Below are positions 7,080-56,408 of a stretch of 64,000 nucleotides of DNA, piece by piece. Position 1 is the first letter of the stretch, and the number at the start of each line of letters is the position of its first letter. Location: assembly GCA_040905715.1 (NCBI GenBank), contig JBBDRA010000003.1:71075-135074 (forward strand). The letters run 5' to 3'. The notes beneath the pieces were generated by a model. The model saw only the letters and a program-made list of their open reading frames with translations, ran no database searches and was not told the DNA's origin. Origin of the DNA: Minisyncoccota bacterium. GTDB taxonomy: Bacteria; Patescibacteriota; Minisyncoccia; Phycocordibacterales; CSBR16-193. Made by a program: the position numbers and the translations under genes.

Positions 7080-8549
<1,470 letters not shown>

Positions 8550-8769
8550 ATTTTTCTGAGTTCGCCACCGGTGAACTCAGTGAAACGGTCGGTCCTGCAC
8601 CTCGATCGAGTGCAGGAAAAATCCTTCGTGGCGTATGTCATGAAGGGCAAAGGTTTTGGTCTCGGAGCCTCAAGTCGAGATCATGTGGACGGAACGAAAG
8701 AGAGAAGAATTGTCTAAGATCCTCATTGTTGACAATCAGCAATGGGGATTTTGTATTCAGCTTCTTCCC

Positions 8770-9434: not shown

Positions 9435-10040
9435 TTGATGCGATATACGATGCTGCTTCTTACGTTAGTTGTCACGACTATGGTTGCGACAACCGCTTTC
9501 GCAGACGAAACACCGGAGACGACGTTTCAGAAAGCGACGGCATTTGTGCTCGATTCTGAGGGTGGCTACAGCGATCATGTTGCAGACACCGGAGGTGCTA
9601 CCAACTATGGAGTTACTCAGGTCGCCTACGATTCCTGGCAAGATTCTTTGGATAAGAGGCGTCGACCGGTTTCCCAGATCGAGTTGTGGGAAGTCAAAGG
9701 CATTTATTATGCTTACTGGCTTGAGGCTCGTTGCTATGAGATCGAGGAGGTTTCTCCGGCGCTAGCGATCGCTCATTTTGACTGGGCGATCAATGCGGGG
9801 CCATCACAGGCGATGCGAACGCTTCAGCGGTGCATCGGGACCGAAGCTGACGGCATTTGGGGTCCGAAAACCCGTGCTGCATTTCTGAAAAGCGATCCGG
9901 CAGAGGTGCTCGAGGAGTATTTCGAGCGCCGCGAGCGGTTCTACCGGAGTCAGCCTGAAGAGCGACGCGACGCGTTTCTCTCTGGCTGGCTGAATAGACT
10001 CGATAAACTTCGAAATTTTCTATCAGATAGGGAAGAATAA
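9435..10040 (+). CDS. Secreted peptidoglycan hydrolase: GH108 lysozyme domain + PG_binding_3 domain
   Basis: It has a signal peptide (MMRYTMLLLTLVVTTMVATTAFA). The GH108 signature is 'EGGYSDHVADTGGATNYGVTQ'. The C-terminal 'GIWGPKTRAAF' fits a PG-binding-3 domain. Confidence 0.7.
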   Translation: MMRYTMLLLTLVVTTMVATTAFADETPETTFQKATAFVLDSEGGYSDHVADTGGATNYGVTQVAYDSWQDSLDKRRRPVSQIELWEVKGIYYAYWLEARCYEIEEVSPALAIAHFDWAINAGPSQAMRTLQRCIGTEADGIWGPKTRAAFLKSDPAEVLEEYFERRERFYRSQPEERRDAFLSGWLNRLDKLRNFLSDREE

Positions 10041-10721: not shown

Positions 10722-10797
10722 GCGCGTGTAGCTCAGCTGGTAGAGCATTCGACTGATACTCGAAAGGTCCCAGGTTCGATCCCTGGCACGCGCACCA
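10722..10797 (+). tRNA. tRNA-Ile (anticodon GAT), CCA encoded
   Basis: A manual cloverleaf fold gives acceptor GCGCGTG/CACGCGC, D-arm GCTCAGCTGGTAGAGC, anticodon loop CTGATAC and T-arm CCAGGTTCGATCCCTGG. The length is 76 nt. Confidence 0.9.
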
Positions 10798-18724: not shown

Positions 18725-20041
18725 TTGAGGTGTATTATTATGCTTAAGTTACCCTCTTCATCAACGCTCTATATCAGTAGTGCCTGTATTGTCATAGTAG
18801 GCGCTATTACTATGCTTATATTTGCTCCTCACTTAGAGCTTGGATCTATTGAGTACGATGCTTCCGAGGCTTCTGCGACAGGTGTGGTTTCTAGCGCAAC
18901 AAGTACACAAGGAGAGAAAGAGAAGGAAGATGATCCGGTCGAGACCGTAGCGCATGTTGAGACACCTGATTCGGTCCGAGCGATCTATATGACCACCTGC
19001 GCCGCCTCTACACCAAGTTTCCGACAGCGCCTTACTGACTTGCTCAAAACAACCGAGGTTAACTCGATCGTGATCGATATCAAGGATTACTCCGGCGGGA
19101 TCAGTTTCCCGGTGAATGACCCTGAGCTTAAGCCTGCGCAAGGGATCAATTGTTTCGTGCCGGACATGAAAGAGTTCATTGAGGAGCTTCACGAAATGGG
19201 CGTCTATGTTATCGGTCGCATCACGGTCTTTCAGGATCCGTTCTATGCCAGACGCAATCCGGACGTAGCGGTTCAGCGAGGAGACGGAAGTGTCTGGACA
19301 GACGGCAAAGGACTTAGCTTTACCGACCCGAGCGCGCGTCAGGTGTGGGAGTATACGATCACGCTTTCCCAGGAGTCGTATGCACTTGGATTTGATGAGC
19401 TGAACTATGACTACATTCGGTTCCCCTCTGACGGAAACATGAAGGACATCAAGTTTCCGGTCAGTGGCGACCGAGCCAAGGACGTAGTGATTGAAGAATT
19501 CTTTGCGTATTTGTTTGAGAAAGTAAATGACCCGGAAGTGTTCCCGAACGGCTCACCTGTCACCTCGGCTGATCTGTTCGGTATGGTAACAACGAATTAC
19601 GATCATCTCGGTATTGGCCAGGTGCTGGAGCGAGCGATGCCGTACTTTGATTATATCGCCCCAATGGTTTACCCGAGCCACTATCCAAACGGCTTCAACG
19701 GTTGGGCGAATCCAAATCATTACCCGTACGAGATCATCAAATACACCATGAGCCGTGGAGCTGACCGAGCGGTGGCAACAACCACGAGTATTGCTTTTTC
19801 CGGCGCAAAACGGATCGGCACCAGCACACCTGCCGTGTATGAAAAGGAGGTGTACGACAAAGACAAGCTTCGTCCGTGGCTTCAAGATTTTGACTATGGT
19901 GGGGACTACGGACCCGACGAAGTTCGGGCACAGATCCAAGCAACCTACGACGCCGGGCTCGACAGCTGGATGTTGTGGGACCCGGGAAACTACTACACCC
20001 GCGAGGCGCTCAAATCAGCCAGTAGTTCAGGAGGAATGTGA
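18725..20041 (+). CDS. Membrane-anchored putative glycoside hydrolase (DUF4015/COG1306-like TIM-barrel)
   Basis: It has an N-terminal TM helix. The motifs 'SIVIDIKDYSGGISF' and 'GFDELNYDYIRFPSDG' resemble the DUF4015 putative glycosyl hydrolase family. Confidence 0.4.
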   Translation: MRCIIMLKLPSSSTLYISSACIVIVGAITMLIFAPHLELGSIEYDASEASATGVVSSATSTQGEKEKEDDPVETVAHVETPDSVRAIYMTTCAASTPSFRQRLTDLLKTTEVNSIVIDIKDYSGGISFPVNDPELKPAQGINCFVPDMKEFIEELHEMGVYVIGRITVFQDPFYARRNPDVAVQRGDGSVWTDGKGLSFTDPSARQVWEYTITLSQESYALGFDELNYDYIRFPSDGNMKDIKFPVSGDRAKDVVIEEFFAYLFEKVNDPEVFPNGSPVTSADLFGMVTTNYDHLGIGQVLERAMPYFDYIAPMVYPSHYPNGFNGWANPNHYPYEIIKYTMSRGADRAVATTTSIAFSGAKRIGTSTPAVYEKEVYDKDKLRPWLQDFDYGGDYGPDEVRAQIQATYDAGLDSWMLWDPGNYYTREALKSASSSGGM

Positions 20042-20092: not shown

Positions 20093-22003
20093 ATGAGTAA
20101 TGAAGAGCGTGTAACGTACTTTGCGAAAACTGATTCACGCAATCGCCAAAAAACCTTCGGCATTAAAGCGAAGGACCGGAGCCGTCATGTCTATGTGATC
20201 GGAAAGACCGGCATGGGAAAGTCCACTCTGCTTGAGAACATGGCGATCCAGGACCTCCGCAATGGCGAGGGTATCGCTTTCATTGATCCGCACGGCAAGA
20301 CCGCTGATCTCTTGCTGGACTATGTACCGGAAGAGCGTCTCGATGATGTGGTATATTTTGCCCCGTTCGACATGGAGCATCCGCTCTCTTTCAACGTGAT
20401 GGAGGATGTCGGGGCTGATAAGCGCCACTTGGTAGCAAGTGGCTTGATGAGTAGTTTCAAAAAGATCTGGATAGACGCGTGGTCCGCACGAATGGAGTAC
20501 ATTTTAAATAACATTCTCTTAGCGCTTTTGGAGTACCCCGACTCAACCTTGATGGGAGTGAACCGAATGCTTGCTGATAAAGATTATCGAAAGAAGGTGG
20601 TAGAGAACGTCACTGACACCTCGGTCCGGGCGTTTTGGACCGATGAGTTTGCCAAGTACGGCGAGCGGTATATGCAGGAGGCCGGCGCCGCTATCCAGAA
20701 CAAGATCGGTCAGTTTATTTCCAATCCGGTCATTCGCAATATCATTGGTCAGCCACATTCCAGTTTTGATCTGCGTCGGATCATGGATGAGCGTAAGATC
20801 GTGATCATTAACCTCTCCAAGGGGCGAGTCGGCGAGACGAACGCCAACCTCTTGGGCGGTATGCTTATCACCAAAATGTATCTCTCTGCCATGTCGCGCG
20901 CCGACACTGACCCGGAGACCATGGAGAAGTTGCCGAACTTCTATCTTTTTGTGGATGAGTTCCAGTCCTTCGCCAACGAGTCCTTTGCCGACATTCTCTC
21001 CGAGGCACGTAAGTACAAGCTGAACCTCACCATGGCTCACCAGTATATCGAGCAGATGGATGAGACCGTGCGCGCCGCGGTCTTTGGCAACGTCGGTACT
21101 ATGATCACCTTCCGTGTGGGAGCATATGACGCTGAGTTCCTCGAGAAAGAATTCGAGCCGGTCTTTGATGCCAACGATCTGGTGAACCTCGGCTTTGCGC
21201 AGATCTATTTAAAGCTGATGATCGACGGTGTGTCCTCGCCGCCATTCTCAGCTATTACCTTGCCACCGTTAGAAGAAAAAGACACCTCGCACAGAAACGA
21301 GGTTATTGATGCGTCACGGGCGAACTATTCGAAGTCGCGCGAGGAGGTAGAAAAGTCTATTAACGAATGGCAAGGTATTCATGTGAAAGACTATGAAGAA
21401 TCACCGGCGGATAAGCAGCAGAAGAAGAAACCCAAAAGGGACCAGCAGAAGGATCAGCAGAAAGACCCGTCAAAAGCACAAGGTACCGACCGGCAGCGAG
21501 GGGAAGCAAGACCGCAATCACAACACTCCGGGCACAGCAACGGGGCTTCTCAAAAGCCGGCGGAAGGAAAGAGTAGCGATGAGTTGCGTGCCGCGCTTGC
21601 AGCTATCAGCAAGCAGGTAAGTCAAGGTCAGAAGACAGATCAGACGACCAATCAGAAGGAAAATAAATCTAAACAAGAGAATAGTGCTTCTCGATCGGAT
21701 CGGAAAAGACCACGAAAAGATACGTCCGGCACATCTCTCAAAGATGCGCTTAAAGAGCGAGGCCTGCTTGGTAGCAACGACTCAGCACCAAAGGAAAAAG
21801 AAGAAGTGAAAGAACAGCCGGACAAGAGCGAAAAAATGAACGAAAAGAAGAGCAAGGATGAAAGAGACAACAAAGAAAAAGATCAACAAGAGAGTATTCC
21901 GGAGGAAAAACCAAAAGAAAAGAAATTTCGAGAAGTCCCCCGAGAAGTCCTCGATGAGCTTCTTGGTGCTGACGAAGATGACCCAAAGAACGCAAAACGC
22001 TAA
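20093..22003 (+). CDS. VirD4/TraG/TraD-like (TrwB_AAD_bind-type) P-loop ATPase with a ~200-aa disordered K/E/D/Q-rich C-terminal tail
   Basis: It has Walker A 'IGKTGMGKST' and Walker B 'FYLFVDEFQSF'. Its overall architecture resembles type IV coupling proteins. The tail (residues ~440-636) is low-complexity. Confidence 0.45.
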   Translation: MSNEERVTYFAKTDSRNRQKTFGIKAKDRSRHVYVIGKTGMGKSTLLENMAIQDLRNGEGIAFIDPHGKTADLLLDYVPEERLDDVVYFAPFDMEHPLSFNVMEDVGADKRHLVASGLMSSFKKIWIDAWSARMEYILNNILLALLEYPDSTLMGVNRMLADKDYRKKVVENVTDTSVRAFWTDEFAKYGERYMQEAGAAIQNKIGQFISNPVIRNIIGQPHSSFDLRRIMDERKIVIINLSKGRVGETNANLLGGMLITKMYLSAMSRADTDPETMEKLPNFYLFVDEFQSFANESFADILSEARKYKLNLTMAHQYIEQMDETVRAAVFGNVGTMITFRVGAYDAEFLEKEFEPVFDANDLVNLGFAQIYLKLMIDGVSSPPFSAITLPPLEEKDTSHRNEVIDASRANYSKSREEVEKSINEWQGIHVKDYEESPADKQQKKKPKRDQQKDQQKDPSKAQGTDRQRGEARPQSQHSGHSNGASQKPAEGKSSDELRAALAAISKQVSQGQKTDQTTNQKENKSKQENSASRSDRKRPRKDTSGTSLKDALKERGLLGSNDSAPKEKEEVKEQPDKSEKMNEKKSKDERDNKEKDQQESIPEEKPKEKKFREVPREVLDELLGADEDDPKNAKR

Positions 22004-22021
22004 TTATATACCGTTTGGATA

Positions 22022-23356
22022 ATGTCTTGGAAGATCGCACAAACACTCATTCTTATTGCGATTTTCTCTGTGCCGGTGTTTTCACTCCAGGCAGATCATG
22101 CGATCAATATAAATACAGCGAGTGTGGAGATGCTCCAAGAGCTCACCGGTGTCGGAGAAGTAAAGGCCGGTGACATTGTTGCGTACAGAGATAATAATGG
22201 CCACTTTAGTTCGATCAGCGAGATTGAAGAAGTGAGCGGTATCGGCCCGGCAACCTTCAACGGTATAAAAGACCACATTACGGTAAGCGGTTCTTCCGAT
22301 ACTGATACAGACGACACTGATGACGACGATGATACAGATACCAAGGAGGAGGAAAACACCACGGACGACTCAAAGAGTGAAGAAGACGCAGAGAGAAGTA
22401 GTTCCAGCTCCGGCGGTAGCGATGACTACGAGAGCAAGATGGAGTCACCACTTTCGGTCTCGCTCGATCTCTCACCCTCTGTTGCTGTGGCCGGAGCCCC
22501 GGTAACCTTTATGGTCGATGCACGCATTGAAGAGAGTGAGGCAAACACAACTTCCTTTGATTGGAATCTGGGCGATGGTACCCAGGCACAGGGAAAGGAA
22601 GTGACGCATATCTATGCAGCTCCGGGTACGTACGTTGTGGTGATCAATGCTGAAACACGCACAAAAGAAGCGCGGATCAAAGAGACGATCACGGTCCACG
22701 AAGGAGGTGTATCGATACGTGACGTCTCGCTTTCTCCCGATGGGTCGATCACCCTCACCAACAATGACGTTCAGGAATATCTGCTGACCGGTTGGCATCT
22801 TTCAGCCGGTGGGCAGACATATACGATCCCCGACGATACATTCATAGCCGGAGGCAGCTCGATCACCTTGCCTTCGGTGGTTACCGGCCTGGAGCTTGCC
22901 CGGCCGGATGTCTCACTCTTGTATCCGAACGGCGATCTAGCCGATAAGTATAATACACAGGAGCCAAAACAGGCTGATGCCTCACAGACTAGATTAGAGA
23001 CCAACCCAAGCAATTCAGCGCCTGTTCAGTCGGCAGCTGAGAATGCGGTTGCCGAAGAAGAAGACGGTGAAGCGGGTGATGAAGGAGGCGGGGAAGTACG
23101 AGGCACGACAAGCGTTGCCGCTTCGGTCTCGCTTTCTGATTCATCCGGCAAGCTCTGGCCGTGGCTTGCCGGCTTGCTTGGCGTCGTTGCGCTGGGTATA
23201 CTCGGGTTTATCGTAGCAAAGCCCCAGGAGGGTCTTGAGGAAGGTCTTGTAGCCCAAGAGACAGCAGAAACAGAGATAGCAGCAGGTGATTCCGCTGATG
23301 ATTACGAGATCTTAGAGAGTCTTCCTAACGACGAGAGGCAGAAACGAAACGTATGA
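22022..23356 (+). CDS. ComEA-like helix-hairpin-helix DNA-binding protein fused to an acidic linker, a PKD domain and a lamin-tail (LTD) domain, with a C-terminal membrane anchor
   Basis: It has a signal peptide and a ComEA HhH segment 'INTASVEMLQELTGVGEVKAGDIVAYRDNNGHFSSISEIEEVSGIGPATF'. The PKD domain reads 'NLGDGTQAQGKEVTHIYAAPGTYVV' and the LTD reads 'LLTGWHLSAGGQTYTIP'. A TM helix sits at the C-terminus. Confidence 0.6.
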   Translation: MSWKIAQTLILIAIFSVPVFSLQADHAININTASVEMLQELTGVGEVKAGDIVAYRDNNGHFSSISEIEEVSGIGPATFNGIKDHITVSGSSDTDTDDTDDDDDTDTKEEENTTDDSKSEEDAERSSSSSGGSDDYESKMESPLSVSLDLSPSVAVAGAPVTFMVDARIEESEANTTSFDWNLGDGTQAQGKEVTHIYAAPGTYVVVINAETRTKEARIKETITVHEGGVSIRDVSLSPDGSITLTNNDVQEYLLTGWHLSAGGQTYTIPDDTFIAGGSSITLPSVVTGLELARPDVSLLYPNGDLADKYNTQEPKQADASQTRLETNPSNSAPVQSAAENAVAEEEDGEAGDEGGGEVRGTTSVAASVSLSDSSGKLWPWLAGLLGVVALGILGFIVAKPQEGLEEGLVAQETAETEIAAGDSADDYEILESLPNDERQKRNV

Positions 23357-24537
23357 TCGAATCTCACTTTAAAGTACTTATCGTCGTTACCCGAGGAACA
23401 GTCGGCGGAGCCCAGACCTCTGTGTTCAACCTTGCCCGCCAACTCGCTCGAAGCCCTCAGGCAGACGTGACCGTCGGCTCCGGCGAGGGAGAGCACCTGG
23501 CACTGCGCTGCCGGGCCGCCGGTATTGAGCACGTTCGATTCGAATACTTACGCCGTAGCCTTAATCCGATCTACGCCGTGCGCTCGATCGCCGAGTTTGT
23601 GCGGCACTTTAATCAAGAGCAGTACGATGTTGTACACATCAACAGCTCAAATGCACTTTTTGCCGCCCTCGCCGCAAAACTCTCAAAGAAAAAACCATGG
23701 ATCGTGTTTACATTCCGCGGTCTCTCGCTCCTCGACGAGCACTATGAGATGTCGAGCCTAAAGCGACGACTCTATATCTGGATATACCGGATCCTGCTCG
23801 CGTTCGTTGATGAGCCGGTCTTTGTGAGTTTTGAGAATTTCGAGACCGCCACGCGGATGGGGCTGGTTAAGGAAGGCGCCGGCACCGTGATCTACAACGG
23901 ACTGGACCCTGAGGAGCTTGTCTTTGAAGATCGCTCTGAGGCCCGGCAGGCGCTCGCTGAGTTATCCGGCGCGAAGATAACCGACGAGACGTTTCTTATC
24001 GGATCGATCGGCCGACTGGCGTACCAGAAGAATTATGAGTTTTTGATAGATCAAATTGCTGATCTGTCGGGTAAGCATCCTTTACTCAAAGTTGTTATTA
24101 TTGGCGATGGTCCTTTACATAAAACTATCCTTGGCCATATTCGGAGAGAAGGGCTTGAGCAAATAATATATTTGCCCGGCGAGATCCCTGAAGCTTCTCG
24201 TTATATGAGAGGTCTTGATCTTTTTGTTCTACCAAGCCGGTACGAGGGGCTTTCGGTCACCCTGATAGAGACGCTCTTTGCCGGGGTGTCGGTCCTTGCC
24301 TCGGATGTCGGTGGAGCGCGTGAGCAGTTCGAGCAAGCGCCGTTTCAGGTATATCCTTTGGATAACAGCGAAGAATTTCAGAAGCGTCTCTCGCGCTTGA
24401 TCGAGCACGCGGATGTGCGGGCCGAGCTCGCCGAGGCAAACAAAAACCGCGCAAACGATTTTCACATCAGCAAAACCGCCGCCGGGTACCGGAGCGTGTA
24501 TAATGAAGCACATAATACATCACGGTCGCAATCGTAG
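23353..24537 (+). CDS. Glycosyltransferase family 4 (GT-B, Glycos_transf_1)
   Basis: The C-terminal GT1 motif 'EGLSVTLIETLFAGVSVLASDVGGARE' is present. Its start overlaps the upstream gene's stop (ATGA). Confidence 0.7.
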   Translation: MIESHFKVLIVVTRGTVGGAQTSVFNLARQLARSPQADVTVGSGEGEHLALRCRAAGIEHVRFEYLRRSLNPIYAVRSIAEFVRHFNQEQYDVVHINSSNALFAALAAKLSKKKPWIVFTFRGLSLLDEHYEMSSLKRRLYIWIYRILLAFVDEPVFVSFENFETATRMGLVKEGAGTVIYNGLDPEELVFEDRSEARQALAELSGAKITDETFLIGSIGRLAYQKNYEFLIDQIADLSGKHPLLKVVIIGDGPLHKTILGHIRREGLEQIIYLPGEIPEASRYMRGLDLFVLPSRYEGLSVTLIETLFAGVSVLASDVGGAREQFEQAPFQVYPLDNSEEFQKRLSRLIEHADVRAELAEANKNRANDFHISKTAAGYRSVYNEAHNTSRSQS

Positions 24538-25614: not shown

Positions 25615-26005
25615 TGATATAGTATCGACTATGGAAACAGGAGCACTCGCCATATCCACAATCATATTTCTAAGTGTTTGTTTGTTCTTATTGGTTAATA
25701 ACAAAAGATTGCGTGATGAACTTCGACGAGTGGAGAAAGAGAAGCAAGAAGAGGAAGAATCATTTGAACGGTCAGGTGGTTTAGAGGAATATCACGCTGA
25801 ACGTCAGCGAGTGAAAGATGAGCGCAAAGATAGCATTCTTGTTCTTTTCGAGGGCAAGAAGAAGATCAAGAACGCTGACGTTGTGAATGTGTTGGATGTA
25901 TCCTCGGCAACAGCGACCCGGTATTTGGATGAGTTGGAGGAAGAAGGACGTATTCAACAGAATGGCACAACCGGAAGAAGCGTGGTATACGTAGCGGTAA
26001 AATAA
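25604..26005 (+). CDS. Small membrane-anchored protein with a coiled-coil and a C-terminal winged-helix (HTH)-like domain
   Basis: It has an N-terminal TM helix and a charged coiled-coil. The C-terminal 'VVNVLDVSSATATRYLDELEEEGRIQQNGTTGRSVVY' looks like a wHTH. The true start may be the ATG at 25631. Confidence 0.35.
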   Translation: MESDDIVSTMETGALAISTIIFLSVCLFLLVNNKRLRDELRRVEKEKQEEEESFERSGGLEEYHAERQRVKDERKDSILVLFEGKKKIKNADVVNVLDVSSATATRYLDELEEEGRIQQNGTTGRSVVYVAVK

Positions 26006-26045
26006 ACAGCTCACATTGCTTGTGAGCCGTTTAGAAAGCCTATAT

Positions 26046-27239
26046 ATGGCGGAAAACCAACAAAAACCAAAGATACTGATCGTTATTAGCAACCTCGAAG
26101 TCGGTGGTGGTGCTCAGCGGGTTGCATCTACAGTCGGGAACGAACTGAGTGATAAGGGCTTTGAGACGCATCTGCTTACGTTCTATGAATATCCGCAGAC
26201 GTATCCGTATTACGGGGTTTATTATAGTAGGCATGAGAAGCCAAAGAAATTCAGTAAACCGATAAAAGCAGTGATGCGGGTTTGGGATATTGCACAGTAT
26301 TGTAAACGACATAATATACAAACGACAGTAGCCTTCCTTGAAGAGGCGAGTTTTTATTCCATACTAACGAAGCTTTTTTTCAACAGAAGTAGAATAATAG
26401 TTTCAGTGAGAAACAATCCTCATTATAGAAACACATTATATAAAGTCTTAATGCGGCTCCTATATCCATTTGCTGACAGAGTGATCTCTGTCACAAGAGG
26501 TATTGAAGAGATCCTAAAAAAAGATTATAAATTAACGAACACAGCGACGATATATAATCCGATTGATAAAGAGATGATAGAAAAAAGAGCAGAAAACCCC
26601 CTTCCGGAAGAATTTCGCTGGGTAGAAAATAGAACACCTTTATTTATATCTATAGGACGTTTGGTCCAACAAAAAGGTCAATGGCATCTCGTACGCGCGT
26701 TTCAAAAAGTTGTGGAAAAAAATAATGATGCAACGCTTGTCCTTGTCGGGGATGGGAAATTGAAAGATAAACTAAAAAAACTCATTGCTGATTGCGGCTT
26801 GAATAATAATGTTTTTTTGTTCGGAAAACAGAGCAACGTTTTTTCTTTTCTTAAAGCAAGTGATGTATTCATATTTAGTTCTCTCTGGGAAGGGATGCCT
26901 AACACGGTACTTGAAGCTCTTGCAGTCAATTTGCCGGTTGTCACAACTGATTGTGCTACTGGTCCGCGTGAGATCATCGCGCCGGAGCTTGGTATTTTTG
27001 AAAATATTACATACCCCTACATGACACAGTATGGTATTTTGACCATGCCGCTTGGTTTTGAACAAATTTGGGAAAGCAGTGAATCATGCGCATTGACGCA
27101 AGAGGAGAAAGTATTTGCTGATGCTATGATACAGATCTTAGAAAAACCGCTCAAAGATCGGCTAACCGGTCTTAAGGCGTTTCAAATGAATTCTGTTATT
27201 GAGCAGTGGTGTAGAGTAGTTAGCGAGAAGGAGGAATAA
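26046..27239 (+). CDS. Glycosyltransferase family 4
   Basis: The N-terminal 'ILIVISNLEVGGGAQRVA' and C-terminal 'EGMPNTVLEALAVNLPVVTTDCATGPREI' are GT4 motifs. The ORF track starts at 26016, but the ATG at 26046 is preferred. Confidence 0.7.
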   Translation: MAENQQKPKILIVISNLEVGGGAQRVASTVGNELSDKGFETHLLTFYEYPQTYPYYGVYYSRHEKPKKFSKPIKAVMRVWDIAQYCKRHNIQTTVAFLEEASFYSILTKLFFNRSRIIVSVRNNPHYRNTLYKVLMRLLYPFADRVISVTRGIEEILKKDYKLTNTATIYNPIDKEMIEKRAENPLPEEFRWVENRTPLFISIGRLVQQKGQWHLVRAFQKVVEKNNDATLVLVGDGKLKDKLKKLIADCGLNNNVFLFGKQSNVFSFLKASDVFIFSSLWEGMPNTVLEALAVNLPVVTTDCATGPREIIAPELGIFENITYPYMTQYGILTMPLGFEQIWESSESCALTQEEKVFADAMIQILEKPLKDRLTGLKAFQMNSVIEQWCRVVSEKEE

Positions 27240-27933
27240 TATCGAGTCGTGGCCGTTCAGTTCTTCGATCGTTTTCTACGGACTGTTCGTCTCGCCGTAA
27301 GGCGATCGTGTTTTTACAGCTATCAATTACATACCAGTGGCCGCCTGCAAGCAGTTCGCCAACAACTCGAGTAACGCCCGAAAAAGAAATGTGATCATCA
27401 AATATGAGACAGCCTCCATCTCTTACGTACGGTGCGAATTTATCTGCATCCTTGCGGCAGGCTTCATATGAGTGATCTGCATCAATAAAGACAAGGTCAA
27501 ATGTACTATTTTCTGGAACAGCAACATGATGACTGTTCCCTTGTATCGTTTTGATTATATCTTTCCAGGGATCAGTTGTTTCCTGGAAGGATTCAAATGT
27601 ATCCTGTTGTCCTTCAGACATTGCATCGTTATTCCAAGTATCAATGCAGTACAAAAACACGGATGTTTCAGGGTTTCTCTTGCTATCTATAAGACCTTGT
27701 GCAATAACCGCAGTTGACGCGCCTCGGTAGGATCCAATTTCAAGTGCAACTCCAAGCTTGTGGTGATTGATCATCATGCGGTACAAAAAAAGCCGCTCTT
27801 CAGTGTTCGTTGTTCCTTTTGCTTTACTTGCACTGCCGACAATTCTCCCAAGTTGTTTTAAGGGAAAAAAAGTTGTTAGGTAGTGATTGTAAAATCTCCG
27901 AATTTTATTTTTTATTTTTTTTATAAATTTCAT
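27220..27933 (-). CDS. Class I SAM-dependent methyltransferase (Methyltransf_24 / O-MTase-like)
   Basis: It carries 'LEIGSYRGASTAVIAQG' and 'FDLVFIDADHSYEA', typical of the Methyltransf_24 / OMT family 3. Confidence 0.55.
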   Translation of the reverse strand: MKFIKKIKNKIRRFYNHYLTTFFPLKQLGRIVGSASKAKGTTNTEERLFLYRMMINHHKLGVALEIGSYRGASTAVIAQGLIDSKRNPETSVFLYCIDTWNNDAMSEGQQDTFESFQETTDPWKDIIKTIQGNSHHVAVPENSTFDLVFIDADHSYEACRKDADKFAPYVRDGGCLIFDDHISFSGVTRVVGELLAGGHWYVIDSCKNTIALRRDEQSVENDRRTERPRLDIIPPSR

Positions 27934-27950
27934 GTTTGTTTTGTAAGGTT

Positions 27951-28826
27951 TTAATCTTTTGTGTGATACCCAAAAAAGGGAGATAGGAAATTATTGATTT
28001 GATCGTTTAAATATTTTATATCATCAGGCTGTAGAGCATCTTTGTAACCGCCCACCTTCCCTTGACGGACTTTATAGCTTTGTTCGTCTTTTGTTTCTCC
28101 TGCGCCAAATCGTCCTTTAATATAAAGTTCACCAGAACGTTCACGTTTTTTCATATTGTCGAATGCTGAAAATGCAATAGCTTGAGTGAGAGCCTCTTCT
28201 TTCAAAGGAAGACCTAATATGTTTATTAGACGGACCATTTCATGATAGGTGTCACTAGACATGTCTTCATAACGAAGCAAGGTAAATGATGCAGGTATTT
28301 TTTGAGCGTTATTCCAGTGGTTAAGAAAGGTAATAAGCTTGCGTATGCCAAACCGATCATCTCGTATGAAATCGCTCAAAGTACCTTCAAATACTTTTTG
28401 ACGATGTGTGCAGTGAAAATAGTAAGAAACCAGTACGTCTCGAGGATCCCGGACAAGCAAAACAACTTTTTTTGTTTCAAAAGCGGTTTTGTCTGCATTT
28501 AACTCTTCAGAAGGTACGTTGATAGGCTGAGCGTACGTGCTTCCATCATGAACAAAAACTATATGTGGTATATCAGAAATTTGGTGACGTAGGTCTGTAA
28601 TGTCTTCTTGGTGGTCGAGCGGTTTACCATGGAGCGCGGCTACGTAGGCGCTGATGATCATTCTGAGCCAACTTCTTCCCGATTTTGGGTAAGATACGAT
28701 CATGACCTCGGCAAATCTGTTGCGATGCATTTCTGGGTATTCTCGAGAAAATGGCCCGCTTCCAAGACCAATGTATTTTGCTGTCCGATACCACTTTTCT
28801 GGATGTAGATATGATCTTATTACCAT
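27951..28826 (-). CDS. Sulfotransferase (PAPS-dependent, Sulfotransfer_1-like)
   Basis: The 5'-PSB motif is 'YPKSGRSWL' and the 3'-PB motif is 'LLVRDPRDVLVSYY'. Confidence 0.7.
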   Translation of the reverse strand: MVIRSYLHPEKWYRTAKYIGLGSGPFSREYPEMHRNRFAEVMIVSYPKSGRSWLRMIISAYVAALHGKPLDHQEDITDLRHQISDIPHIVFVHDGSTYAQPINVPSEELNADKTAFETKKVVLLVRDPRDVLVSYYFHCTHRQKVFEGTLSDFIRDDRFGIRKLITFLNHWNNAQKIPASFTLLRYEDMSSDTYHEMVRLINILGLPLKEEALTQAIAFSAFDNMKKRERSGELYIKGRFGAGETKDEQSYKVRQGKVGGYKDALQPDDIKYLNDQINNFLSPFFGYHTKD

Positions 28827-29554
28827 GTTGTGTATAGTTGAGAAAATACATCTTCCACTTTTGACCTTAGTAGCTCCTCGCTTTCAGAAGGTAAAGCATT
28901 TTTATTGCTACTTCCTCCGTGCCAAGAAGAAAATATATTTGCAAGTCCTGGATCGATAGCTGCAGCATCTTCTTCTGCATTTTCATACCTGATCAGTATG
29001 GGATCCAATTCTTTTTCCTTAAGCAGCAAGTACTCTTCAGCAAGGCCTCTCCAAAGAGTTGAAAATAGAGTTATACCGCCTACTGAATTAACTCCACCAT
29101 AAGGTTCAACTACACTTAAATGACGGTGTGGCTTGGTCCAGCTAACATATGCGTAGAGTGGGTGGCGGATTAGAAAAACAACATCTTGAACATTGTGCCG
29201 ACTAAAGAAATTCATCACCGGCATCATGTTAAATAGGGCGGTTTGACCGTGTTCTTTTACATAGCCAAGGTAGTTGACCAAGTTTTCATCAATCGTTTTG
29301 TCCAAGACAAGTTGAAATCCTGATCGTTTGTAGAAGGTTGCGCAAGATGTTTCGTTAGGGTATTCCTCATATCCGTTGATTACTTGTCGAGCATTATATT
29401 CAGGCAAATTTTGATCTGCTGACATATATTGCCTGGGCACGAAGCTCGTGTCAGGCTTTGAAGAGTGGAATGCCCCATAACCGCTTTTTGGAATAAGGGT
29501 ATTCAGTGCGCTTGACCCAGAGCCTCCTCGTGAGCAAAAAAAGTGATACCTCAT
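28820..29554 (-). CDS. Sulfotransferase-domain protein (Sulfotransfer_3/Stf0-like), tentative
   Basis: It has an N-terminal P-loop-like 'FFCSRGGSGSSAL' and 'VVFLIRHPLYAYVSW' resembling a 3'-PB. Its start overlaps the upstream sulfotransferase stop. Confidence 0.4.
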   Translation of the reverse strand: MRYHFFCSRGGSGSSALNTLIPKSGYGAFHSSKPDTSFVPRQYMSADQNLPEYNARQVINGYEEYPNETSCATFYKRSGFQLVLDKTIDENLVNYLGYVKEHGQTALFNMMPVMNFFSRHNVQDVVFLIRHPLYAYVSWTKPHRHLSVVEPYGGVNSVGGITLFSTLWRGLAEEYLLLKEKELDPILIRYENAEEDAAAIDPGLANIFSSWHGGSSNKNALPSESEELLRSKVEDVFSQLYTTW

Positions 29555-29564
29555 GATGATAGTA

Positions 29565-30173
29565 TTAGCGACGTTTAAAAATAGATAGTTGTCCAGTATT
29601 TGTATCTTGATTCATTACTGGGATCTGGTCAAACTCTGAGTCGATCATTGCTCTTGGAAGAAGGTCGTTCGTTCGTATTGCCAAGTATGTTTTCGTGCGT
29701 TTAATAATATTTTGAAGTGTGTTTTTAGCATCCTGTTCATTAAGATGATGAAAAACACCAAGGAAAAGAACTATATCATAGGAAGGAAGAAGTAAATCGG
29801 CATTTTCATGTTCAAATTTTCCCCAATCATTGATGTCCGCCTGTCGAAATTCAAAAGAAAGATTATCTTTCTCTTTTTCAAATAACTCATTGGCAAGTGT
29901 TATTGAAATATCTTGGATGTCGAATCCATGGATGAGACGTATACCTTTTTTGAAAAACTCATATGAAATTAAACCTTCTGCGCACCCAAGATCGAGCAGC
30001 GTCGCGTTTTTGCAGATTGTCGTAGTCGCGATTTCTTCAAGTCCACGAAATCGTGTTGAAATATCAACACCTTCTCTTCTTCCTTGTGTATTTAAAACAG
30101 TACTTTTGAAGTAGGGTTGATCACTTTCTTTACTGTAGCCCTTTACGGATTGTTTTCTTTTAAAAAAAATCAT
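29565..30173 (-). CDS. Class I SAM-dependent methyltransferase
   Basis: It has motif I 'LLDLGCAEG' and motif post-I 'HGFDI'. Confidence 0.6.
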   Translation of the reverse strand: MIFFKRKQSVKGYSKESDQPYFKSTVLNTQGRREGVDISTRFRGLEEIATTTICKNATLLDLGCAEGLISYEFFKKGIRLIHGFDIQDISITLANELFEKEKDNLSFEFRQADINDWGKFEHENADLLLPSYDIVLFLGVFHHLNEQDAKNTLQNIIKRTKTYLAIRTNDLLPRAMIDSEFDQIPVMNQDTNTGQLSIFKRR

Positions 30174-30268
30174 GAGCTTTTCTTAGGGTGCTATTGCAGG
30201 AAGCAGAATTATCTTAGATTCTAACCACAATACCATATACTCTTTGTTTTTAGAGTATGGCGTGGTTG

Positions 30269-31114
30269 TTATTTGAGCATGTTGTTAATTTTATACCAAA
30301 GTCGGCTTGTATAGTAGAAAATAGTAAGAAGAGCTGCTAGTAAATAACTCCACATAACGTGCCCTAAGCGTGTCAGTATATTGTTTGAGGAGGTGTTTGG
30401 TGCAAGGATGCCCGTTGAGTTATTAACAGTGATTCCGTTAAAAGTAAGTGGTTTTGGTAGATGTGCTTCGTGATGTGGGTACTGAGGTATTAGTTTGGCA
30501 AGGTTCAACACCCCTTTTTCATCTGGCAGCTTAACATCATGTGTCGTTAGTGTTGTAGAAGAATGTGTGTGCTGTGCGATCGAGTGCAGCGTAGGCCGAT
30601 TGATCGATCCATCAATAAAACAGAAGTCTATCTGTGTGTCTCTAGGTAAATTATCGATAGCCTTTTCGCTCGGTGCGTTAACGAAGGTAATAAATTTATC
30701 GTAACTTGAACCTAGTGCATAATAGATATTTATGTCACAGGTGTATATATGACCAGCACCGTTCTTTTTGAGTGCTTCAGCCATAAACATTGAACTCGTA
30801 CCGATCCATGTACCGATCTCAAAAATAATGTTTGGTTTAAGTTCTCGCACTAATAAATAAAGATAAATACAATCTGATAAACCGGTTGATCCAGCGATGG
30901 TTCCGTTTGGGGTTCGCCTGATAGTTGGGAGTTCTTCTTTGGGGGTTGCGTGTAGATTCTGGTGAATCTTTTGAAATTCAGGCATACGTTCTAGTACTTC
31001 TTCGGCATATGTTTCCCATAAATGGGACGGCATTACGTTTTTATCCATAATGTATTTATAGTTTAAGATGCCCGAAAAGTGATCCGGTGTCATACGCCAG
31101 TATACCTTTTTCAT
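30269..31114 (-). CDS. Class I SAM-dependent methyltransferase (Methyltransf_24-like) with a C-terminal TM helix
   Basis: It carries 'IIFEIGTWIGTSSMFMAEAL' and 'DFCFIDG'. The ORF overlaps the upstream GT-D gene by 59 nt, so the true start is probably a downstream Met at about 31093 or 31048. Confidence 0.5.
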   Translation of the reverse strand: MKKVYWRMTPDHFSGILNYKYIMDKNVMPSHLWETYAEEVLERMPEFQKIHQNLHATPKEELPTIRRTPNGTIAGSTGLSDCIYLYLLVRELKPNIIFEIGTWIGTSSMFMAEALKKNGAGHIYTCDINIYYALGSSYDKFITFVNAPSEKAIDNLPRDTQIDFCFIDGSINRPTLHSIAQHTHSSTTLTTHDVKLPDEKGVLNLAKLIPQYPHHEAHLPKPLTFNGITVNNSTGILAPNTSSNNILTRLGHVMWSYLLAALLTIFYYTSRLWYKINNMLK

Positions 31115-31805
31115 TCAGCTCTGCCGCAAGAATTGTTGCAGTAACTCCACCAGAAATTGCAATGAGGGGGTTTTTAAATTGATTGGCTTCATTTGTGATC
31201 TTTTTAAGTAGTGTGTGATAGTACTTGTAGGTGTTGTGGGATGGAATGGGAATTGAGGTTGCTGGTGAAATGTGCTTGGCTACATCCTGCCCGCTGCCTA
31301 CATAAATGACATCTCTTTCCTTAAATAAGGAAAGAACAAGTTCTTTATATTCTTCGGGGTTATCGTCTATTACATCTTGTAAGCGAAAGCAGAAAGGTGA
31401 CCCGTACACAGCGCCTTTCTTGAGAAGAGGTAACGCAGCGTATTTCGGGGCTCGCCAGTTTTCCGGTGTGCTGTTGCGCTCAGCGTAGTTCTTGGTCAAG
31501 AGAAGATCAAGTGGGACTGCCAAAAGATAGGTTTTTGGTCCGGCGTAGCCTGCAAGAACGTTAGTCAACTTTCTTTTGAGCGTTGCGTTTTGCGTTTGAT
31601 GTACGGCGGGATAACCGACGGTATAGTTAAGCTCGCCGTCACCGTATCGGACGATGCCGACGTTGCTATTTTTGATGTATTCAATTGTCTCGCGGTCTGA
31701 GAGAAACCGAAAATCTTCAAGAGAAGCGTTGAGTTTGAATGGATTGCATGCAAGCCGTGCGGCAATTCTTGACCAAACCTTCAGTTTTCGGATCTTTTTG
31801 TTCAT
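31056..31805 (-). CDS. GT-D type glycosyltransferase (DUF1792 family)
   Basis: The N-terminal 'VRYGDGELNY' matches the DUF1792 '(R/K)(F/Y)GDGE' signature of GtfC/dGT1-type GT-D enzymes. Confidence 0.5.
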   Translation of the reverse strand: MNKKIRKLKVWSRIAARLACNPFKLNASLEDFRFLSDRETIEYIKNSNVGIVRYGDGELNYTVGYPAVHQTQNATLKRKLTNVLAGYAGPKTYLLAVPLDLLLTKNYAERNSTPENWRAPKYAALPLLKKGAVYGSPFCFRLQDVIDDNPEEYKELVLSLFKERDVIYVGSGQDVAKHISPATSIPIPSHNTYKYYHTLLKKITNEANQFKNPLIAISGGVTATILAAELNEKGILAYDTGSLFGHLKL

Positions 31806-32689
31806 ACGTGTTTCCAGTGAGAGAGGTCTCTGTTGGTCAGACGCTCGAGTTTCTCGATGTCTGTATAAAAGTATTCTACCAGTTCTTGTTTGAACGTGTC
31901 TGAGAGAGGCTTCGCTCCGCCGATGAGTTTCTGGACGAACGGAAGGTTCCGTAGGCTGCGGCGGATGCCGAGTGCTTTCTTAAGTCGGCCAGCCAATTTT
32001 ATAAGCCGGCGAGCAAGAGGTGAGCGAGTTGCTTTCCTGCGGTGAATAACCGGGAAGTCGTTTCTGCCGTCGTCCTCAACACCGAGAAACGAGAGGGTTT
32101 TTTGGTAGACGGCTTTCGGGTCTTTCTTGAGGTCGTCGTAGAAGATAACAAGTACTCGGTCTTCTCCTGCTTGCTTAAATACACGTTCGAGCTGCTCGCC
32201 GGTCCGGCAGATCTCGCCGTAGCGAAGTTCACCGTTGTTGGTATCACCGGGTTGGCGCGGCTTTTTGGTGTCTATTTGCTTATGTTTTTCCCACGCTTCT
32301 TCCGGAGCATGTGCTTGCTCAGATCCTTCATAGACACGTTGCCAGTAGAGAGACTCGAACATCTCTATCGGATTGCGGAGCATTACGATAAACCGGGTGT
32401 CGGGATTATGTTCAAGAATGTTTGGAATAGCTTCCGGGGTCCGTAGAAGTCGTGTCGGTGCTCCGCCGAGAGCCGTGTGCCCGGCGGCGCCGGCGAATGC
32501 CTGAGCAAGATATTCCTCGCGTGTGCGGTATTTGTCTCGGGCGCGAGAATAGGCGGTGTAGTACTCAGCCTCTTTTGGTTCCGATACGAATATATCCGGA
32601 TGATCGCGTAGGTACTCGGAAAGCGCGGTGGTGCCGCATTTTGGCGCGCCGAGAATAAAGAAGGTGGGCTGTGGTGTGTTCGTGAACAT
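31802..32689 (-). CDS. Sulfotransferase (PAPS-dependent)
   Basis: The 5'-PSB is 'ILGAPKCGTTALSEYL' and the 3'-PB is 'IVMLRNPIEMFESLY'. The coding sequence is GC-rich relative to neighbours. Confidence 0.7.
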   Translation of the reverse strand: MFTNTPQPTFFILGAPKCGTTALSEYLRDHPDIFVSEPKEAEYYTAYSRARDKYRTREEYLAQAFAGAAGHTALGGAPTRLLRTPEAIPNILEHNPDTRFIVMLRNPIEMFESLYWQRVYEGSEQAHAPEEAWEKHKQIDTKKPRQPGDTNNGELRYGEICRTGEQLERVFKQAGEDRVLVIFYDDLKKDPKAVYQKTLSFLGVEDDGRNDFPVIHRRKATRSPLARRLIKLAGRLKKALGIRRSLRNLPFVQKLIGGAKPLSDTFKQELVEYFYTDIEKLERLTNRDLSHWKHV

Positions 32690-32692
32690 TTC

Positions 32693-33418
32693 TTATACAC
32701 GCTTGAGCTTCTGTTTGAGCGATCGCTTCCATCGGCGAAAGTAACCGATCAGGACGCGTTTGTTTTGGAACACTTTTTTGAGAAAGAGCCGCGCTCTGTT
32801 TTCAAGACGGTCCAGTTGTGTATTCCGATCTACTTTTTGAGCGTATACGGTTGAGCTGGCGATACGCGGCTTTTTGAAGTGAGGAGACCGATATACGGTT
32901 TCGTCGACAAGGCGAGAGACGCCTTCCCAAGTAAGAGCGTCGTGAAAGGCAACAATGCCGCCGACGGCAACTTTGGGAAACCACAACTCAAGATCCTCTT
33001 TGGCAGATTCGTAGGAATGATCGCCGTCGATAAAAAGCAGTCCGATCGTTTGGTTGTAGGTGCCGGCGAAGGTCTCGGCGGCTTCGGCCGAGGTCGATAC
33101 GATCGGTGTTACACTCTGAGCAACACCGTGCTTTTCCAGATTATTTTTAAATTCATCAAACGTCCATACCTGGCCGAACAGTTGTTGGTGTTCCTTGGAT
33201 CCGGTGTGTGGATCGATCGCGTACACCCGCGCGCTGTTTCCCTCGGTTGACCCCGAAGCCAGACAGAGTGTCGAGCGTCCCTTCCAGGAGCCGATCTCGA
33301 CAATAGCCATATCACTTGGGCACGCTTGAGCAAGTGTATAGAGAACCGCTCCTTCTTTGTCGGTTAGCCAGCCGTCAATAGACCGCATCGACCGGAGTGT
33401 TGTAGCAAGATTAATCAT
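32693..33418 (-). CDS. Class I SAM-dependent methyltransferase (Methyltransf_24-like)
   Basis: It carries 'IVEIGSWKGRSTLCLASG' and 'LLFIDGDHSYE'. Confidence 0.55.
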   Translation of the reverse strand: MINLATTLRSMRSIDGWLTDKEGAVLYTLAQACPSDMAIVEIGSWKGRSTLCLASGSTEGNSARVYAIDPHTGSKEHQQLFGQVWTFDEFKNNLEKHGVAQSVTPIVSTSAEAAETFAGTYNQTIGLLFIDGDHSYESAKEDLELWFPKVAVGGIVAFHDALTWEGVSRLVDETVYRSPHFKKPRIASSTVYAQKVDRNTQLDRLENRARLFLKKVFQNKRVLIGYFRRWKRSLKQKLKRV

Positions 33419-56402: not shown

Positions 56403-56408
56403 AAAACA

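Follow-up and report, generated by a model that had tools for sequence, protein, structure and literature searches.

A soluble VirD4-like ATPase encoded beside a surface protein with a ComEA-type head in a Paceibacterota chromosome

The window analyzed in this study is a stretch of 64,000 nucleotides of chromosomal DNA from a metagenome-assembled genome (MAG) of Candidatus Paceibacterota (contig JBBDRA010000003.1, positions 71,075 to 135,074), and all positions given below without another locus name are counted from its first letter. Patescibacteria may hold a large share of bacterial diversity and cannot make their own nucleotides. The subject of the analysis is a pair of genes on the + strand of the window, one encoding a P-loop ATPase (open reading frame 20093-22003, 636 aa) and one encoding an exported surface protein, designated protein 2 or P2 (open reading frame 22022-23356, 444 aa). 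The initial annotation, made from the sequence alone, had described two adjacent co-directional genes 18 nt apart that might form a compact module for DNA uptake or translocation, and both open reading frames and the 18-nt spacer were confirmed. The ATPase is a soluble relative of the type IV coupling proteins (T4CPs) of type IV secretion systems (T4SSs), P2 carries a ComEA-type helix-hairpin-helix (HhH) domain at its distal end, and the pairing of the two genes is old and recurrent, which suggests that their products may act jointly on DNA. The ATPase gene contains the following features, where pLDDT is the predicted local distance difference test score and TM stands for transmembrane.

20093..22003, + strand: gene for a short-form, soluble, T4CP-like (VirD4/TrwB-fold) P-loop ATPase of 636 aa (open reading frame, Pfam, Foldseek, no TM segment).
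20093..21382, + strand: conserved ATPase core, aa 1-430, a nucleotide-binding domain with an inserted all-alpha domain at ~aa 100-232 (conservation, AlphaFold2).
20201..20227, + strand: Walker A motif GKTGMGKST, aa 37-45 (all nine residues invariant among 22 homologues; aligns with the TrwB P-loop).
20948..20965, + strand: Walker B motif FVDEFQ, aa 286-291 (aligns with TrwB; D288 and E289 invariant in the 22-homologue alignment).
21383..22000, + strand: charged, disordered tail, aa 431-636, 206 residues (composition, pLDDT, variability).
21581-21607, + strand: second copy of tail motif 1, ELRAALAAI, aa 497-505 (within a predicted helix, aa 495-513).
21734..21757, + strand: tail motif 1, SLKDALKE, aa 548-555, consensus L..L[RK].AL (L549 and L553 invariant, 22 homologues).
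21932..21964, + strand: tail motif 2, EVPREVLDELL, aa 614-624, consensus E[VI]PE.VL[RK]+[IL]L (near the C-terminus; predicted helix at aa 617-623).

Profile and fold both place the ATPase with VirD4 and TrwB and rule out an unrelated AAA family, the assignment that had been named in advance as fatal to the initial annotation. Four Pfam families score above their cutoffs: T4SS-DNA_transf (43.7 bits, cutoff 20.1), TrwB_AAD_bind (32.3 bits, cutoff 20.5, aa 26-342), DUF87/HerA (27.1 bits, cutoff 23.2), and TraG-D_C (22.9 bits, above the gathering cutoff). The NCBIfam equivalogs for conjugative T4CPs remain far under cutoff (45 bits vs. 250-650), and the FtsK_SpoIIIE model scores 11.6 bits vs. a cutoff of 24. 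TrwB chains were the only relatives found when the sequence was compared with solved structures (E = 2.4e-4), the alignment covering the P-loop and the Walker B/R/K/Q region, where ARKYKL (aa 305-310) and AHQY (aa 315-318) align with the GRKAGL...GLQS region of TrwB. The Walker A and Walker B motifs read in the initial annotation are present and invariant in the 22 homologues, and the same holds for R306, K307, H316, and Q317. An AlphaFold2 model built on 22 homologues (mean pLDDT 63.9, mostly 80-95 over aa 50-290) has an alpha/beta core into which seven helices (aa 108-232, pLDDT ~83-95) are inserted between the strands E86-89 and E236-240. A Foldseek search of this model against the PDB ranked Cag-beta, DotL, and TrwB at the top (E = 4e-6 to 1e-4), followed by DndH-C, HerA (E = 5e-4), and VirB4.

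T4CPs such as TrwB of R388, VirD4, Cag-beta, and DotL have the same fold, a nucleotide-binding domain with an inserted all-alpha domain, and their Walker A and B motifs as well as the downstream R/K and Q motifs align with the window ATPase. Unlike T4CPs, however, the window ATPase lacks an N-terminal TM domain (a hydropathy scan found no TM segment, and Walker A begins at residue 37) and has no adjacent T4SS or relaxase gene, and unlike the T4CPs borne on mobile elements its gene is chromosomal, near-universal, and extremely conserved. The window genes that were examined and 80 related loci yielded no T4SS gene (virB4 etc.) and no relaxase gene, and a scan of ~40 window proteins found no T4SS, pilus, or comEC gene, in agreement with the earlier remark that the rest of a T4SS is missing from the window; nor did it find a second copy of the ATPase or P2 family. 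HerA and FtsK belong to the same ASCE P-loop superfamily as the ATPase, as the DUF87 score above cutoff also indicates, but the stretch before Walker A is just 36 residues long, so that a HerA HAS-barrel is absent, and the alpha and gamma domains of FtsK are not present; in the fold search the T4CPs come out ahead of HerA. Of the two resemblances offered by the initial annotation, to T4CPs or to HerA-like DNA pumps, the first is the closer one, and the T4CP identity itself extends to the VirD4/TrwB fold and not to the N-terminal membrane domain. The best name for the protein is orphan, soluble T4CP-like ATPase within the FtsK-HerA superfamily, since two hallmarks of T4CPs, the membrane domain and the linkage to T4SS or relaxase genes, are absent. 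By analogy with the T4CP family it would form a hexameric ring.

The C-terminus, previously noted as ~200 aa long and highly charged, comprises 206 residues of which 46% are D, E, K, or R and 16% are hydrophobic, with pLDDT <50 save for three short helices (aa 495-513, 547-555, and 617-623). The length and the sequence of the tail vary among homologues and two short motif types are kept; within motif 2 the 22-homologue alignment shows no change at E614, L620, and L624 and hardly any at P616. T4CPs such as TraD and DotL typically end in a long disordered tail with a binding motif at its tip, and the window ATPase likewise has a disordered C-terminal extension with putative binding motifs. Motif 2, which follows a long disordered linker, loosely resembles the C-terminal peptide of FtsZ (D-I-P-x-F-L-R-K), with a spacing that is off by one residue.

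An NCBI protein from a Paceibacterota MAG matches the ATPase at 100% identity. A word-indexed search returned 8,000 matches, the best 120 of which are 57-79% identical and mostly from Paceibacteria-type Patescibacteria, and an exhaustive search of 50%-identity cluster representatives returned 22,503 matches at E <= 1e-3 and 5,977 at E <= 1e-30. The core is ~75-79% identical to its closest relatives and the 22-homologue alignment contains long runs of invariant columns across Taylorbacteria, Yonathbacteria, and Minisyncoccota. Overall, the family is near-universal, very slowly evolving, chromosomal, and housekeeping-like in Patescibacteria. A published survey counted 5,713 T4CP homologues in 2,918 of 3,035 Patescibacteria assemblies (96%), only 148 of them near virB4, and VirB4 in 2,417 assemblies (Quinonero-Coronel et al. 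2025, PMC12102498). The same survey reports that Southlakia can grow epibiotically without t4cp whereas its T4SS genes are indispensable, and the authors leave open whether orphan T4CP homologues were exapted for other functions. The window ATPase very probably belongs to this published orphan set, whose VirD4-like members lie mostly far from virB4. Both the family and its orphan status have thus been published before. The split into short and long paralogues, the tail motifs, the pairing with P2, and the C-terminal peptide of P2 described below are absent from the literature searched and from the available passages of PMC12102498, which do not mention synteny with DUF4015 either. Literature searches found nothing on DUF8128 and nothing related on DUF4015.

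A long-form paralogue with ~50% core identity was seen in three loci (L086, 1330-4620; L087, 8001-10871; L088, 5402-8272; proteins P0194, P0204, P0210, and P0213) and consists of two N-terminal TM helices, a ~350-aa DUF8128 region, the ATPase, and a charged tail. The existence of a short and a long architecture fits the published figure, which is close to two VirD4-like genes in each genome. The gene immediately upstream of the long form always encodes a Sigma70_r4 protein, and genes of the dcw cluster and of cell division lie nearby (RsmH, FtsI, MraY, FtsW, and MurG, also FtsQ-POTRA and Peptidase_M23). As both paralogues border mur/dcw genes, a replacement of FtsK was considered; FtsK is mentioned in papers on Saccharibacteria TM7x, and the reading was rejected because it has no other support. 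Two further loci contain unusual family members. At L091 (4554-5999) the ATPase-family gene upstream of an HhH-PKD-LTD homologue of P2 (P0126; LTD, lamin-tail domain) has diverged to 24% identity and has a degenerate Walker A (GKVGSGRG) and Walker B (LHDA), with its position between DUF4015 and the partner gene and its tail-end motif (REVSEDTLKNML) kept, and it may be a pseudo-ATPase that is retained for scaffolding. At L085 (1-3335) a second, different T4CP-like gene lies with Bro-N, HTH, and a MethyltransfD12 fragment beside the MurC-DUF4015-ATPase block, and these extra genes are probably a mobile or prophage-like element that bears its own coupling-type ATPase.

The second gene of the pair encodes, in this order, a signal peptide, a ComEA-type HhH domain, an acidic linker, a PKD domain, an LTD-like beta-sandwich, a disordered stalk, a TM helix, and a cytoplasmic tail of 45 aa.

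22022..23356, + strand: gene for an exported single-pass surface protein (P2) of 444 aa (open reading frame, Pfam, NCBIfam, AlphaFold2, Foldseek).
22094..22285, + strand: ComEA-type HhH domain, aa 25-88, right after the predicted signal peptide (HHH_3 69.3 bits; TIGR00426 66.1 bits, cutoff 53.1).
22286..22453, + strand: acidic disordered linker, aa 89-144 (composition; pLDDT ~35).
22454..22699, + strand: PKD domain, aa 145-226, with a WNLGDG motif (PKD 49 bits, cutoff 23.5; PKD_4 48.6 bits).
22703..22951, + strand: LTD-like beta-sandwich, aa 228-310 (Pfam LTD, PF00932, 21.2 bits, below the cutoff of 34.3; pLDDT >90).
23159..23218, + strand: TM helix, aa 380-399 (hydropathy scan; predicted helix at aa 380-398; alignment).
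23294..23317, + strand: cytoplasmic tail motif ADDYEILE, aa 425-432, followed by 12 residues (consensus A-D-E-[YF]-x-I-I-E-(E)-COOH).

The predicted signal peptide covers aa 1-24 (ending in SLQA, with DH following) and is directly followed by the HhH domain, whose two hairpins are GVG (aa 43-45) and GIG (aa 73-75). The domain matches the ComEA structure 8dfk in the PDB (E = 6.6e-13) and superposes on ComEA 8dss with a root-mean-square deviation (rmsd) of 1.1 Å over 63 aa at 38% identity. The model of full-length ComEA (TIGR01259) reaches 71.8 bits vs. a cutoff of 152.35 and matches the HhH region only. The linker (aa 90-145) consists of 27% D, 23% S, 14% E, and 12.5% T; its acidic, Ser-rich character recurs directly after the HhH in the HhH-type homologues, and it could be an intramolecular DNA mimic, a cation binder, or a plain spacer that spans the wall. 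The PKD domain resembles the PKD domains of ColG (TMt 0.78-0.85, rmsd ~2 Å, AlphaFold2/Foldseek). The beta-sandwich (aa 230-310) is confident in the AlphaFold2 model and no LTD structure ranked among the whole-chain Foldseek matches of P2. At the same position the homologue at L027 carries an LTD with 36.5 bits, above cutoff, and several relatives have two LTD stretches, so that the assignment of a putative LTD in the window copy rests on positional homologues. The layout given in the initial annotation was thereby upheld for the export, the anchor, the HhH, the acidic linker, and the PKD domain, whereas its LTD is a putative one in the window copy, with support from relatives that pass the cutoff.

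The HhH domain of P2 is homologous to that of ComEA of B. subtilis and G. stearothermophilus, and both proteins are extracytoplasmic and membrane-tethered. Compared with ComEA the topology of P2 is inverted, with the HhH at the distal tip after the signal peptide and the anchor at the C-terminus; the SLBB/oligomerisation domain is missing, and the PKD and LTD-like domains and the cytoplasmic motif are added. The canonical ComEA matches identified in the analysis (P0129-P0139) do carry SLBB (PF10531). The P2 gene lies outside a comE operon, and neither comEC nor comEB turned up in the part of the window's gene set that was examined. Bacterial LTDs accompany extracellular nucleases and metallo-beta-lactamase-type hydrolases (PMC6085458, PMC8289736), and the in vitro activity of ExeM is lowered by deletion of its LTD (PMC6085458). 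ExeM and NucH are exported and combine an LTD with DNA-acting modules, a combination to which P2 with its putative LTD would correspond, but P2 has no nuclease domain.

The usual layout of the P2 family is a signal peptide, an LTD, a linker, a PKD domain, a second LTD, a stalk, and a TM helix. The distal LTD is replaced by a ComEA HhH in the window, in a few close relatives, and in a separate lineage (L077/L080), and on the tree of the ATPase this exchange of LTD and HhH at a single site shows up two or more times. An exchange at a fixed position suggests an equivalent role of the distal module, plausibly the binding of nucleic acids. The HhH-PKD-LTD architecture is rare (~6 close relatives, best identity 52%), and the earlier claim that fusions of LTD and ComEA are characteristic of DNA scavenging in episymbiotic bacteria found no documentation in the searchable literature, the usual form being LTD-PKD-LTD.

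A strongly conserved feature of the C-terminal part is a short peptide with the consensus ADE[YF]xIIE. It was present in 9 of the 13 tails of at least 8 aa in the first set of P2-like proteins. In an independent metagenome set of 46 distinct tails the pattern defined a priori occurred in 14 (0.04 expected) and a generalised pattern in 38 (1.1 expected; maximum of 6 in 1,000 resamplings), and in 30 of these 38 the match stops no more than 3 residues short of the C-terminus. Of the first four residues past the TM helix about half are K or R, and this enrichment supports a cytoplasmic location of the tail. The peptide occurs in P2-like proteins encoded both next to and away from the ATPase gene and is a candidate docking site for a cytoplasmic partner; no description of it was found in the literature searched. 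A second conserved motif, W-P-W-L-x-G or [WL]-P-[WY]-L-G, lies at the start of the TM helix (aa 378-384, 23153-23173), and in roughly a third to half of the P2-like members of the first set only a short, often basic tail follows the helix. This combination of motif, helix, and basic tail is reminiscent of sortase and exosortase sorting signals, and no NCBIfam sorting-signal model matched.

The conservation of the gene pair was tested in both directions, in a forward test with 80 genome loci anchored on the ATPase and in a reverse test in which an independent set of metagenome contigs was scanned with an alignment of the LTD-type partner, giving 80 loci of which 58 could be judged; all loci come from one class. 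In the forward test the ATPase gene is directly followed by a P2-like gene in 26-28 of ~75-78 informative loci (~36%), and these loci are scattered over all major clades of a neighbor-joining tree of the ATPase, a scatter which argues for an ancestral pairing with repeated loss and not for a single recent insertion. In the reverse test the ATPase gene lies directly upstream of the P2-like gene in 41 of 58 loci (71%), one gene away in 5, and is absent in 12. Insertions between the two genes are rare (5/46), and the gap between the genes, taken over 40 pairs, has a median of -4 nt; 22 of these pairs overlap and 31 are at <=10 nt. All seven HhH-type homologues (P0121, P0123, P0124, P0126, L077, L080, and the window copy) directly follow an ATPase-family gene. 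The expectation that the pair is conserved in relatives was therefore borne out from the side of P2 and only in part from the side of the ATPase, where P2 is missing from about two-thirds of the loci. The association is asymmetric: P2 strongly prefers the 3' flank of the ATPase gene, and the ATPase needs no P2. In one subclade (L099, L112, L137, and L171) the LTD-type partner follows SecD in place of the ATPase and has a large fused GT4-type gene immediately downstream, which shows that a move of the partner gene can take glycan genes along.

Two neighboring genes recur with the pair and are given here as context, without a claim that they belong to the module.

18725..20041, + strand: DUF4015 putative glycoside hydrolase, membrane-anchored, upstream neighbor of the ATPase gene (PF13200, 299.7 bits).
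23353..24537, + strand: GT4 glycosyltransferase, downstream neighbor of P2 and first gene of a surface-glycan cluster (start codon overlaps the P2 stop by 4 nt).

The most conserved neighbor of the ATPase is DUF4015, which lies upstream in 54 of 80 loci. A GT4 gene lies downstream of the ATPase in 47 of 80 loci and is the immediate next gene in 24 of 80, all lacking the surface protein, and a glycosyltransferase gene lies downstream of the P2-like gene in 30 of 58 loci (52%). In the window the genes from murC onward form a single co-directional array with very small gaps, and given this array and the overlap of P2 with GT4 the "two-gene module" is a cut from a longer array. Promoter-like and terminator-like matches occur at chance level in the window, the sole strong terminator follows murD, and the terminator scan found no + strand site between the ATPase, P2, and GT4 genes.

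The reading that we favor, with a probability of roughly 40%, is that the ATPase and P2 form a functionally coupled cassette with a DNA-binding head. The two genes would be an ancestral, usually translationally coupled cassette of Paceibacteria-type Patescibacteria. The ATPase would have lost, or never had, a membrane domain and would act as a ring-shaped, NTP-driven motor or recruiter, as family analogy leads one to expect since the catalytic residues are intact, and the conserved short helical motifs of its tail would bind partners. P2 would be a Sec-exported member of a fast-evolving family with the layout [LTD or HhH]-PKD-LTD-stalk-TM, and the most likely task of the window copy is to capture double-stranded DNA on the outside of the cell, because its distal domain is a ComEA-type HhH, which by homology to ComEA would bind extracellular double-stranded DNA. 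The ADE[YF]xIIE peptide would dock P2 onto a cytoplasmic partner, most economically the ATPase encoded upstream, and this docking would provide the soluble ATPase with a membrane tether, as has been proposed for TraI and TraJ of pIP501, where TraJ is a T4CP without an anchor of its own and the small membrane protein TraI is the proposed tether (PMC12857230). Both systems would combine a soluble T4CP with a separately encoded membrane protein, in the case of pIP501 in a monoderm system (PMC12857230), but TraI is small, has two TM helices, and is encoded in a conjugation operon, whereas P2 is a large single-pass receptor without a conjugation operon. A physical contact between the ATPase and the P2 tail, and any translocation of DNA, are inferred, and a contact of the ATPase with DNA is hypothetical.

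A number of observations weigh against such a coupling. The ATPase occurs without a surface protein in ~64% of related loci, and ~21% of P2-like genes are located elsewhere (e.g., after SecD or a Wzy_C-like gene) and still encode the C-terminal motif. The DUF4015-ATPase adjacency is more conserved than that of ATPase and P2 and is retained at 47% identity, in a relative that keeps the order MurC-TP_methylase-DUF4015-ATPase-GT4 and has no partner gene. Gene overlaps are common in these compact genomes, the P2 stop overlapping the GT4 start as well, and the two proteins differ in their rate of evolution, which is very slow for the ATPase and very fast for P2. The tail motifs and the tail length of the ATPase are the same with or without the partner gene across related loci; this, together with the near-universal distribution of the ATPase, implies a role that is independent of P2 and another, universal partner of the tail. 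The role of bacterial LTDs is unsettled in the literature searched. Finally, shared synteny may explain much of the linkage, as all loci come from one class.

This last point leads to an explanation by synteny without coupling, in which the ATPase is a housekeeping orphan and P2 is the first gene of a variable surface/glycan cluster, encoding a glycosylated adhesin or a protein that binds extracellular DNA, with a C-terminal peptide that serves sorting, quality control, or glycosylation. We regard it as possible but doubtful, and as the strongest of the alternatives. It would account for the conserved order of the block MurD-MurC-(TP_methylase)-DUF4015-ATPase-[P2]-GT4, for the chance-level promoter and terminator sites with no + strand terminator between the ATPase, P2, and GT4 genes, for the overlap of P2 with the GT4 start codon, and for the independence of the ATPase features from P2; where P2-like genes lie apart from the ATPase, a glycosyltransferase still follows in 9 of 13 cases and the motif is retained, and the P2-like protein P0128 is encoded inside a glycan cluster beside a Wzy_C gene. 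It is harder to reconcile with the finding that P2-like genes adjoin the ATPase (71%) more often than a glycosyltransferase (52%), although what follows the ATPase otherwise differs greatly between loci, with the rarity of insertions between the two (5/46), and with the persistence of the pairing over all clades, even where the ATPase has fallen to 24% identity and has degenerate Walker motifs. An unlikely explanation is that the ATPase serves as the coupling protein of a chromosomal, conjugation-derived T4SS (MPF-FATA-type) encoded elsewhere, near dnaA in Paceibacteria, so that the disordered tail would recruit substrates or adaptors and P2 would be at most an anchor, an adaptor, or an adhesin. 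The T4CP fold and the Pfam families agree with it, and published work indicates that T4CPs are often encoded far from virB4, that 2,417 of 3,035 Patescibacteria assemblies contain VirB4, and that the T4SS of Patescibacteria falls in the monoderm class, which includes a system whose T4CP (TraJ) has no anchor. Published work also reports, however, that only 148 of 5,713 homologues lie near virB4, that T4CP homologues occur in more assemblies (2,918) than VirB4 (2,417), that t4cp is dispensable in Southlakia where the T4SS is essential, and that relaxases are almost absent; no T4SS gene was found in the window or in 80 related loci, and the membrane-anchored paralogue (two TM helices, DUF8128, and ATPase) would be the more obvious T4CP.

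A more specific form of the favored coupling is a T4SS-independent motor for DNA import, in which P2 captures DNA and its peptide positions a hexameric ATPase beside ComEC, where it would replace ComFA; we consider this still less probable than a role in a distant T4SS. The published passages list ComEC, ComFC, and DprA as the conserved com genes of the Candidate Phyla Radiation (CPR) without listing ComFA, and report that com genes are non-essential for epibiotic growth in Southlakia. A DNA-import motor is compatible with the unlisted ComFA and with the kinship of the ATPase to DNA translocases, and it would explain why t4cp and com genes are dispensable in Southlakia despite an essential T4SS. 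It is opposed by the canonical ComEC/ComFC/DprA/type IV pilus route, which according to the same passages is present in the phylum, and by the topology of P2, as a single-pass protein cannot be a DNA channel. The compact DNA uptake module put forward at the outset is at present a plausible hypothesis. A component of a mobile element or of anti-phage defense, with a HerA- or MADS-like ATPase, is highly improbable. Its basis is a PADLOC match to mad8 (61.6 bits), weak HerA matches, and the presence of DndH-C and HerA among the fold matches, and it was rejected since the mad8 match comes without partner genes and the context is chromosomal and syntenic: no other defense or mobile-element genes are adjacent, no NurA, Sir2, or DUF4297 partner lies near the ATPase, the surroundings include murC, murD, secA, and the 16S rRNA gene, the pair and its flanks have a GC content (0.50-0.53) that does not stand out within the window, and a near-universal, conserved family at a fixed syntenic position is the opposite of patchy defense islands. 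A CPR Pam pilus, to which a weak NCBIfam PamR match had pointed, was rejected as unrelated, since it has no ATPase and occurs in other classes (2026 preprint).

With respect to the favored coupling of ATPase and P2, the analysis describes one VirD4-like paralogue that is soluble, conserved at the level of a housekeeping gene, and, as the scatter over clades argues, ancestrally coupled to a family of single-pass surface receptors. The receptors carry a conserved docking-type peptide on the cytoplasmic side and a distal domain that can be swapped for a bona fide ComEA DNA-binding module. An annotation curiosity is in this way turned into a concrete model of peptide-ATPase binding, DNA binding by the ectodomain, and transformation or DNA-uptake phenotypes. 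A true coupling would be a new way, in which no T4SS takes part, to connect a conjugation-type motor with a protein that binds ligands outside the cell. Should the two not be coupled, the ADE[YF]xIIE peptide would still be the mark of a new system by which surface proteins of the CPR are sorted or interact.

The wider surroundings of the pair contain murD, a YfiH-like gene, murC, the DUF4015 gene, and several GT4 glycosyltransferase genes, and further a Wzy_C/TPR protein, secA, murJ, pyruvate kinase, the 16S rRNA gene, and the RNase P RNA. A stretch of low GC content (26000-32700, 0.40-0.42 vs. ~0.49 elsewhere) encodes two sulfotransferases, several methyltransferases, and a GT4 glycosyltransferase, and a bifunctional ATP-sulfurylase/APS-kinase gene for the synthesis of PAPS is located 6 kb beyond it (38186-39961); the low-GC cluster together with the PAPS-synthesis gene suggests a sulfated surface glycan that was possibly acquired horizontally. 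Within the window no 23S gene comes after the 16S rRNA gene (7091-8553), and a GH108/PG_binding_3 muramidase-like gene (9435-10040) lies between the 16S gene and a tRNA-Ile(GAT) gene (10722-10797), so the rRNA operon is unlinked or interrupted. The match to the class A RNase P RNA (55928-56403) is 476 nt long vs. a model of 367 positions and scores 100.5 bits vs. a gathering score of 100; being long and barely above this score, it marks an RNA that is divergent or bears an insertion.

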